DNA of 64,000 bases, taken from the NCBI RefSeq assembly GCF_003334355.1, contig NZ_QOWP01000007.1; one strand, given 5' to 3'. Both the position numbers and the translations under genes were made by a program. Under the pieces are notes generated by a model. The model was not told the origin of the DNA. It did not search any database and saw only the letters and a list, made by a program, of their open reading frames with translations. Below, piece after piece: positions 29,897-30,922 of the stretch (the stretch's first letter is position 1; each line of letters begins with the position of its first letter). The DNA is from Escherichia coli. Lineage in GTDB: Bacteria > Pseudomonadota > Gammaproteobacteria > Enterobacterales > Enterobacteriaceae.

Positions 29897-30922
29897 ATGG
29901 CAACAATAAAAGATGTAGCGAAACGAGCAAACGTTTCCACTACAACTGTGTCACACGTGATCAACAAAACACGTTTCGTCGCTGAAGAAACGCGCAACGC
30001 CGTGTGGGCAGCGATTAAAGAATTACACTACTCCCCTAGCGCGGTGGCGCGTAGCCTGAAGGTTAACCACACCAAGTCTATCGGTTTGCTGGCGACCAGC
30101 AGCGAAGCGGCCTATTTTGCCGAGATCATTGAAGCGGTTGAAAAAAATTGCTTCCAGAAAGGTTACACCCTGATTCTGGGTAATGCGTGGAACAATCTTG
30201 AGAAACAGCGGGCTTATCTGTCGATGATGGCGCAAAAACGCGTCGATGGTCTGCTGGTGATGTGTTCTGAGTACCCAGAGCCGTTGCTGGCGATGCTGGA
30301 AGAGTATCGCCATATCCCAATGGTGGTGATGGACTGGGGTGAAGCAAAAGCTGACTTCACCGATGCGGTCATTGATAACGCGTTTGAAGGCGGCTACATG
30401 GCCGGGCGTTATCTGATTGAACGCGGTCACCGCGAAATCGGCGTTATCCCCGGCCCGCTGGAACGTAACACTGGCGCAGGCCGCCTTGCCGGTTTTATGA
30501 AGGCGATGGAAGAAGCAATGATCAAGGTGCCGGAAAGCTGGATTGTGCAGGGTGATTTTGAACCTGAATCCGGTTATCGCGCCATGCAGCAAATCCTGTC
30601 GCAGCCGCATCGCCCTACTGCCGTCTTCTGTGGTGGCGATATCATGGCAATGGGCGCACTTTGTGCTGCTGATGAAATGGGCCTGCGCGTCCCGCAGGAT
30701 GTTTCGCTGATCGGTTATGATAACGTGCGCAACGCCCGCTATTTTACGCCGGCGCTGACCACGATCCATCAGCCAAAAGACTCGCTGGGTGAAACAGCGT
30801 TCAACATGCTGTTGGATCGTATCGTCAACAAACGTGAAGAACCGCAGTCCATTGAAGTGCATCCGCGCTTGATTGAACGCCGCTCCGTGGCTGACGGCCC
30901 GTTCCGCGACTATCGTCGTTAA
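29897..30922 (+). CDS. purR: Purine repressor PurR, LacI family (341 aa)
   Basis: Track ORF; Lac[26 protein letters not shown]; PUR-box-like operators upstream and within 5' coding region. Confidence 0.95.
29935..29950. promoter_or_regulatory. PUR-box-like operator within 5' coding region of purR (O2)
   Basis: GAGCAAACGTTTCCAC inside codons 13-18 of purR. Confidence 0.6.

Follow-up and report, generated by a model that had tools for sequence, protein, structure and literature searches.

A conserved stem-loop at the overlapping ends of the convergent purR and punR genes of Escherichia coli

The purR-punR junction in E. coli

The window analysed here is a stretch of 64,000 nucleotides of Escherichia coli chromosome (contig NZ_QOWP01000007.1, assembly GCF_003334355.1), and all positions are those of the window unless stated otherwise. 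Near its middle, purR and punR face each other tail to tail (Table 1). The ends given in a preliminary description, 30922 on the forward strand for purR and 30919 on the reverse strand for punR, were the same in the sequence, in the open reading frame (ORF) list and in RefSeq. Both are real genes. Their orthologues in 80 genomes were 85-99% identical and showed the LacI and LysR Pfam architectures, and PunR has been characterised experimentally (PMC8376909).

Table 1. Features at and around the purR-punR junction, in window positions
Feature	Position	Strand	Description and basis
purR CDS	29897..30922	+	341 aa, LacI-family purine repressor; stop TAA 30920-30922; ORF list, RefSeq, Pfam LacI and Peripla_BP on orthologues
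punR (ydhB) CDS	30919..31851	-	310 aa, LysR-family activator of punC; ORF list, RefSeq, PunR-named homologues with PF00126 and PF03466
punR stop TAA	complement of TTA at 30919-30921	-	sequence
TTAA tetramer common to both genes	30919..30922	both	stop in either reading direction
punR codons 304-310 (ETPATGD)	30922..30942	-	poorly conserved C-terminal tail; comparison of 78 orthologues
Codon-304 position	30940-30942	-	stop codon in relatives with a 303-aa protein; C-terminal comparison
purR 3' UTR	30923..30961	+	antisense to the last 13 codons of punR; Term-seq ends 30960/30961
Conserved G+C-rich hairpin	30929..30958	both	arms 30929-30940 and 30947-30958, loop 30941-30946; inverted repeat, fold, covariation
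C-over-G-rich stretch in purR read-through RNA	30959..31036	+	candidate Rho loading region; C/G = 1.71; composition count

The two stop codons had been described as overlapping by 4 bp. It is the genes that overlap by 4 bp, with exactly 4 nt in common at their opposite-strand 3' ends; the stop codons themselves have just 2 bp in common (30920-30921). The forward strand reads CGT TAA TC from 30917 to 30924, within a wider junction of ...CGT CGT TAA TCA..., and the shared TTAA is one of the four tetramers (CTAA, TTAA, CTAG or TTAG) that a 4-nt convergent overlap needs (PMC2174442). The gene overlap bore out the further statement that no intergenic DNA separates the pair. Since the reading frames overlap, it is impossible for both transcripts to end before the partner gene.

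No convergent overlap can be shorter than four nucleotides, which is also the most frequent overlap length in prokaryotes (Lillo & Krakauer 2007, PMC2174442). The same survey counted 58 convergent overlaps in E. coli, 19 of which had a rho-independent terminator of one gene predicted within the coding sequence of its partner. The purR-punR overlap as such is not beyond chance, as it belongs to the commonest class of convergent overlap. It is also already known, being part of the standard K-12 annotation, and the overlap of the two transcripts has been catalogued (PMC12288877).

In K-12 MG1655, RefSeq places purR at 1737844..1738869 and punR (b1659) at 1738866..1739798, with the same 4-nt overlap and a junction sequence identical to that of the window. 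Window positions were obtained from K-12 coordinates by subtracting 1,707,947. The RefSeq annotation of strain 510016 gave identical relative coordinates for the two genes and again a 4-nt overlap. The 1-kb stretch around the junction, taken as a 1,001-nt query (30400-31400), was 100% identical to strain 510016 and found matches in 5,425 of 5,426 complete E. coli genomes. A shorter 71-nt junction sequence was present as one copy per genome in 5,424 of the 5,426, at an identity of at least 99% in 5,139; the other two genomes were without it. In one genome the purR-punR junction occurred a second time, on a plasmid record, and one record (H12) matched just the first 303 nt of the 1,001-nt query, all within purR.

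On the far side of purR, positions 29506-29896 on the reverse strand matched STnc550, an enterobacterial sRNA family of Rfam, over its full length (396 bits, E = 6e-103). This match takes in the small gene cydH/ynhF and the sequence immediately before purR.

A stem-loop conserved across Enterobacteriaceae

A strong hairpin begins 7 nt past the purR stop and lies wholly within punR codons 298-308. It consists of a 12-bp stem and a 6-nt loop, with a perfect 8-nt inverted repeat at its core. Folded as forward-strand (purR) RNA it reached -23.2 kcal/mol (z = -5.6), and none of 200 shuffled sequences folded equally well; as reverse-strand (punR) RNA it reached -16.2 kcal/mol. By these shuffles and by the covariation in relatives given below, the hairpin adjoining the overlap exceeds chance. 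The preliminary description had noted that the pair lacks an intergenic terminator. This is literally correct, and it overlooks this conserved stem-loop in the last codons of punR, at which the 3' end of purR maps. The hairpin was single-copy in the window (one match at up to 3 mismatches), and a Rfam scan of 29400-32000 gave no match at the junction. A repeated extragenic palindrome (REP) was ruled out, as the element is single-copy both in the window and per genome in the 5,424 genomes.

The stem has the G+C-rich, stable character of an intrinsic terminator, and the U-rich tract of about 7-8 nt directly after the stem is lacking. In the tail, CACUCCUU, 3 of 8 nt are U. Of the 78 junctions folded, none showed as many as 5 U among the 8 nt that follow the stem, whichever strand was read. 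A consensus terminator scan did not call the hairpin because of this missing U-tract. Since no species has a U-tract in either orientation, the hairpin is probably not a classical intrinsic terminator. The scan gave a terminator-like site at 30799-30783 on the reverse strand, inside purR, which was considered as a punR terminator and dropped because the scan yielded 5 sites against 3.8 expected in the region.

A PunR scan with one genome per species yielded 80 Enterobacteriaceae loci, of which 78 junctions were folded. purR and punR were convergent neighbours in every locus containing both genes. The gene block cfa - punC - punR - purR - cydH(ynhF) was syntenic from Escherichia to Serratia, Erwinia and Pantoea (L083-L086, L001); in Yersinia, sodB came next after purR and no ynhF was called. 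A stable hairpin was found at the same place in all 78 Enterobacteriaceae junctions, which span about 30 genera, and Serratia, Erwinia, Pantoea and Yersinia had one of another form. The arms differed between genera in a compensated manner, for example GGGAGCC/GGCTCCC, GGCGCCGG/CCGGCGCC, GGACGCC/GGCGTCC, GGACACCC/GGGTGTCC and GCGAACGC/GCGTTCGC.

From clade to clade the hairpin apex moved by as much as about 2.5 nt, so that four registers were seen. A single alignment of all junctions was structurally inconsistent because of this sliding and was dropped, so covariation was counted within the two largest register groups, A2 (35 sequences) and A3 (22 sequences). In A2, 88.9% of the cells were paired, against 32-54% when the partner columns were slid, and in A3 the value was 84.1%; the groups were chosen by per-sequence folding, which inflates these percentages, and the two-sided changes are the informative part. 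Such changes occurred in 30 cells of A2, compared with 7.9 +/- 2.0 in shuffles, and in 5 pairs of A3, compared with 1.6; in both groups none of 500 shuffles did as well. Pair 9-25 of A2 took the forms AU, CG, GU and UA and was never unpaired. This comparative evidence shows the stem-loop at 30929-30958 to be under selection as a base-paired structure across Enterobacteriaceae.

The stem cores contained 29 G.U cells, which pair in purR-sense RNA alone, against 4 A.C cells, which would pair in punR-sense RNA alone. This imbalance points to a constraint acting on RNA rather than on DNA, with a weak lean towards purR. The folding energies in E. coli had suggested a hairpin specific to the purR strand. 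This was not general, as 62-nt folds over the 78 loci averaged -22.5 against -23.8 kcal/mol. Overall, the hairpin was about as stable in one orientation as in the other, with mean energies of -20.2 and -19.8 kcal/mol in A2, and -20.6 and -18.7 kcal/mol in A3. The purR orientation was the more stable in 17 of 22 sequences of the Escherichia/Citrobacter group, whereas the Klebsiella/Enterobacter group was tied at 17 against 18.

Placement of the punR stop codon

The spacing between the two genes fell into a few states. A distance of -4 nt was found in 27 Enterobacteriaceae loci, including Escherichia, most Citrobacter, Salmonella arizonae, Trabulsiella, Silvania, Leclercia, Intestinirhabdus, Pseudocitrobacter and Pluralibacter gergoviae. 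A further 45 loci had a gap of +14 to +22 nt, among them Klebsiella, Raoultella, Enterobacter, Kosakonia, Kluyvera, Lelliottia and Phytobacter, and a few had +1, +3, +5 or +45 nt. The 45-nt spacer was confined to a single Enterobacteriaceae locus, that of Enterobacter sp. kpr-6 (L035), where an extra G+C-rich hairpin of the CTGCAGGCC type lies between the purR stop and the conserved hairpin (about 3912-3958 of the locus). In no Enterobacteriaceae locus was there space for a free-standing terminator between purR and punR.

These states correspond to two forms of the PunR C-terminus. The protein was conserved up to ...GDSETLN[KR]EWL[RQ]EP[EAD]. In 46 of the 78 orthologues it ended directly after this core, at 303 aa, with the stop codon in the hairpin loop. 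In 27 of the 78 it was 310 aa long and carried a hypervariable tail of seven residues (ETPATGD, EAPAQQA, EVPAGEA, TPAPGRD, ASAPQRH, GLAPGED, ASVRKEA or AAGSCKH). These seven residues are no more than a translation of the other hairpin arm and the spacer.

The end of purR was CGY-TAA or CGY-TAG in nearly all loci, so the Y-TA-R sequence is a stop on the opposite strand in one frame. We simulated read-through after loss of the first punR stop. An overlap of exactly 4 nt arose solely when the spacer was 2 mod 3 (gaps of 5, 14 or 17 nt); spacers of either other phase led to an ORF that was 18-330 codons longer and overlapped purR by 39-972 nt. All 27 overlapping Enterobacteriaceae loci had the -4 state. 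The mechanical ORF list also contains a 279-aa frame at 30023-30862 on the reverse strand, antisense across most of purR, with nothing to mark it as a gene. Long antisense frames such as this one explain how punR could gain hundreds of codons when read through in the wrong phase.

Longer PunR variants that missed the purR-end stop were found in K. pneumoniae (334 aa, P0008) and Serratia ureilytica (318 aa, P0107). Their long tails read antisense across the purR end (e.g. ...RCLNDDNRQ...) and are consistent with loss of the stop in a spacer phase that misses the backstop. In Yersinia pseudotuberculosis (L086, 2501-3631), PunR was called at 376 aa with a 138-nt overlap with purR; purR stops there with TGA, which does not give a stop on the opposite strand. 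In this species the stretch from the conserved PunR core to purR holds two other hairpins.

Outside Enterobacteriaceae, Serratia plymuthica and Erwinia sp. 9145 also had a -4 overlap, with PunR proteins of 314 and 304 aa, respectively, and in Pantoea the genes were 72 nt apart, with two hairpins. On a neighbour-joining tree of purR and punR from 81 Enterobacterales loci, Fitch parsimony required at least 8 switches between overlap and gap. By this comparison the overlap is evolutionarily labile and the hairpin constant. We gave up calling the ancestral state, and with it the direction of change in the E. coli lineage, because the outgroups mix overlaps with PunR of 304, 314 or 376 aa and a 72-nt gap.

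These observations suggest that the 4-base overlap is a by-product of where the punR stop falls relative to a conserved stem-loop common to both genes. In most relatives the stop lies in the hairpin loop and yields the 303-aa protein. In Escherichia, Citrobacter, Salmonella and others, the loop stop is absent, and translation continues through seven unconserved codons. The extended frame then ends at the first in-frame stop, the complement of the Y-TAA of purR itself, which serves as a backstop. The pair resembles other prokaryotic 4-nt convergent overlaps (YTAR), in that two real opposite-strand genes end on TTAA, the ORF appears to have continued to the next in-frame stop after placement or loss of an earlier one, and a terminator-like hairpin lies in the coding sequence of the partner, as in the E. 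coli cases counted above (PMC2174442). There is no essential difference from that class; the local detail that purR-punR adds is the alternative punR stop of its relatives in the loop of a conserved hairpin.

The purR 3' end and the probable role of the stem-loop

In the part of the Term-seq tables of Adams et al. available to us (2021, PMC7815308, supplementary file 1), purR 3' ends are listed at K-12 1738907 in one growth condition and 1738908 in another, and are classed as 'primary purR, antisense ydhB'. After coordinate conversion these ends fall at 30960/30961, 38-39 nt downstream of the purR stop and 2-3 nt beyond the base of the stem. An antisense 3' UTR, raised earlier as a possible consequence of the tail-to-tail arrangement, therefore exists on the purR side: the purR transcript enters punR in antisense, as documented by Term-seq (PMC7815308) and by the listing of the pair by ExcludonFinder (PMC12288877). 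The purR message has a defined, structured end at the base of the stem-loop. For punR/ydhB, the same portion of the Adams et al. tables (PMC7815308) held no primary 3' end.

Two further RNA 3' ends were listed on the forward strand in that portion of the tables, at 29886 and 30005 (K-12 1737833 and 1737952), the first 11 nt short of the purR start codon and the second 108 nt inside the gene (PMC7815308). The flank listed for the 29886 end contains GCAAACGTTTAC. This motif resembles a PurR operator. The two ends might reflect an autoregulatory roadblock or attenuation.

How polymerase may be released at or beyond the hairpin is suggested by the behaviour of other U-tract-less structures. In Rho-dependent E. 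coli transcripts, 3' ends lie right after stable stem-loops without a U-tract, with a mild excess of C over G downstream, and exonucleases trim the RNA back to the stem (Dar & Sorek 2018, PMC6061677). The purR message has its steady-state 3' end directly past such a stem-loop, and the 78 nt downstream of the hairpin had a C/G ratio of 1.71, compared with background 90th and 95th percentiles of 1.57 and 1.79. purR thus shares with these transcripts the type of stem-loop, the position of the end and the mild C-over-G excess (PMC6061677). It differs in that its hairpin lies in the coding sequence of a convergent gene and not in a 3' UTR spacer, and that Rho dependence and trimming are for purR only presumed. 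The portion of supplementary file 2 of Adams et al. available to us listed no Rho termination region for purR or ydhB; the authors state that detection is limited for weak transcripts (PMC7815308). The TERMITe supplements likewise had no purR or ydhB entry. The missing Rho region could be attributed to low expression, or Rho could have no part in the process.

Bidirectional terminator elements between convergent genes were reportedly seen with SEnd-seq by Ju and colleagues in 2019. Hairpin elements that look unlike intrinsic terminators have been described between convergent genes, where they pause polymerases arriving from either side and fix the collision sites, and this collision model fits highly expressed genes best (Wang et al. 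2022, bioRxiv 10.1101/2022.10.23.513370). The purR-punR hairpin resembles these elements as a hairpin at the boundary of a convergent pair that is unlike an intrinsic terminator and can fold in both transcripts. Unlike in those cases, the purR end alone has been mapped, and both genes are weakly expressed.

From these comparisons we consider it probable that the U-less stem-loop defines and protects the end of the purR mRNA, that polymerase is released at or beyond it by Rho or by collision, and that the overlap is a by-product of punR stop placement. The stem-loop would act both as a pause site and as a 3' structure that blocks exonucleases. Transcription of purR would end at or beyond the hairpin, through Rho or through polymerase collision, and the RNA would then be trimmed to the stem. 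Since punR RNA can form this structure as well, the element probably serves punR too. The end mapped 2-3 nt past the stem could alternatively arise by weak intrinsic termination followed by trimming.

A regulatory excludon is a different proposal, compatible with the stem-loop acting as described. The tail-to-tail arrangement would couple the purine repressor to the activator of purine-nucleoside uptake, through polymerase collision or RNase III cleavage of the RNA duplex. purR-punR is among the 165 convergent excludons of MG1655 found in at least 50% of RNA-seq samples (ExcludonFinder, PMC12288877, Table 1). The pair therefore has overlapping transcripts from opposite-strand neighbours, with the purR 3' end inside punR and its 3' UTR antisense to it. 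This listing (PMC12288877) reflects overlap of RNA-seq coverage alone; the excludon class proper adds mutually exclusive expression and/or RNase III processing. In the part of the p19 capture data available to us, some double-stranded RNA reads fell on both genes, but the per-gene counts were modest. The mapped overlap is just about 40 nt, both regulators are weakly expressed, and we found in the literature no reciprocal expression or RNase III data specific to purR-punR. The two purine regulators face each other in genera from Escherichia to Serratia, Erwinia and Yersinia, but this could simply reflect conservation of the cfa-punC-punR-purR-cydH block. On balance, we regard a regulatory excludon as unlikely.

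A wider form of this idea is that the conserved pairing around one U-less hairpin makes purR and punR a regulatory unit, in which transcription or translation of one regulator modulates the 3'-end formation, stability or read-through of the other. We hold this to be a speculative suggestion with a slim chance of being right. If true, the unit would link purine repression by PurR and the activation of purine-nucleoside uptake by PunR at the RNA level, and genera would differ in the tuning of this link according to whether punR stops in the loop or at the TTAA backstop.

An ordinary Rho-independent terminator of purR that happens to sit inside punR would release polymerase unaided. The G+C-rich 12-bp stem with its 6-nt loop directly past the purR stop agrees with such a terminator, as do the Term-seq end just after the stem and the precedent of the 19 E. 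coli overlaps with a terminator predicted in the partner's coding sequence (PMC2174442). However, the tail holds too few U residues in E. coli and in every relative, and the consensus scan passes over the hairpin. The mapped end is also just 2-3 nt away from the stem, where an end within a U-tract would be expected at 7-9 nt, though a longer end that was then trimmed is possible. These features make unaided release at the hairpin rather improbable. It is highly improbable that the palindrome is a DNA-level element (a protein-binding site or REP-like repeat) or a chance product of PunR coding, despite its perfect 8-bp inverted repeat in DNA and the conserved W-L-R-E-P residues encoded by one arm, because its pairing rather than its sequence is conserved, which is not what a site bound through its sequence would show, G.U cells outnumber A.C cells by 29 to 4, the element is single-copy in the genome and the window with no Rfam match, and substitutions that alter the amino acids of the coding arm (e.g. 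REP, RAP, RTP and RVP) are accompanied by changes in the non-coding arm.

Taken together, the preferred reading of a conserved stem-loop that shapes the purR 3' end leaves the overlap itself with little or no expected functional consequence, as a neutral outcome of stop placement. As a discovery it carries little weight, and its value is the modest one of a worked example. For annotation, the 7-residue tail of PunR should not be treated as functionally conserved. The locus illustrates how a convergent overlap may originate: a stop codon located in a hairpin loop disappears, and the frame is then closed by the complement of the partner's Y-TAA, in one spacer phase alone. It also suggests that RNA structure can override constraint at the protein level at a C-terminus, and that a convergent pair with no intergenic space may still carry a 3'-end signal.
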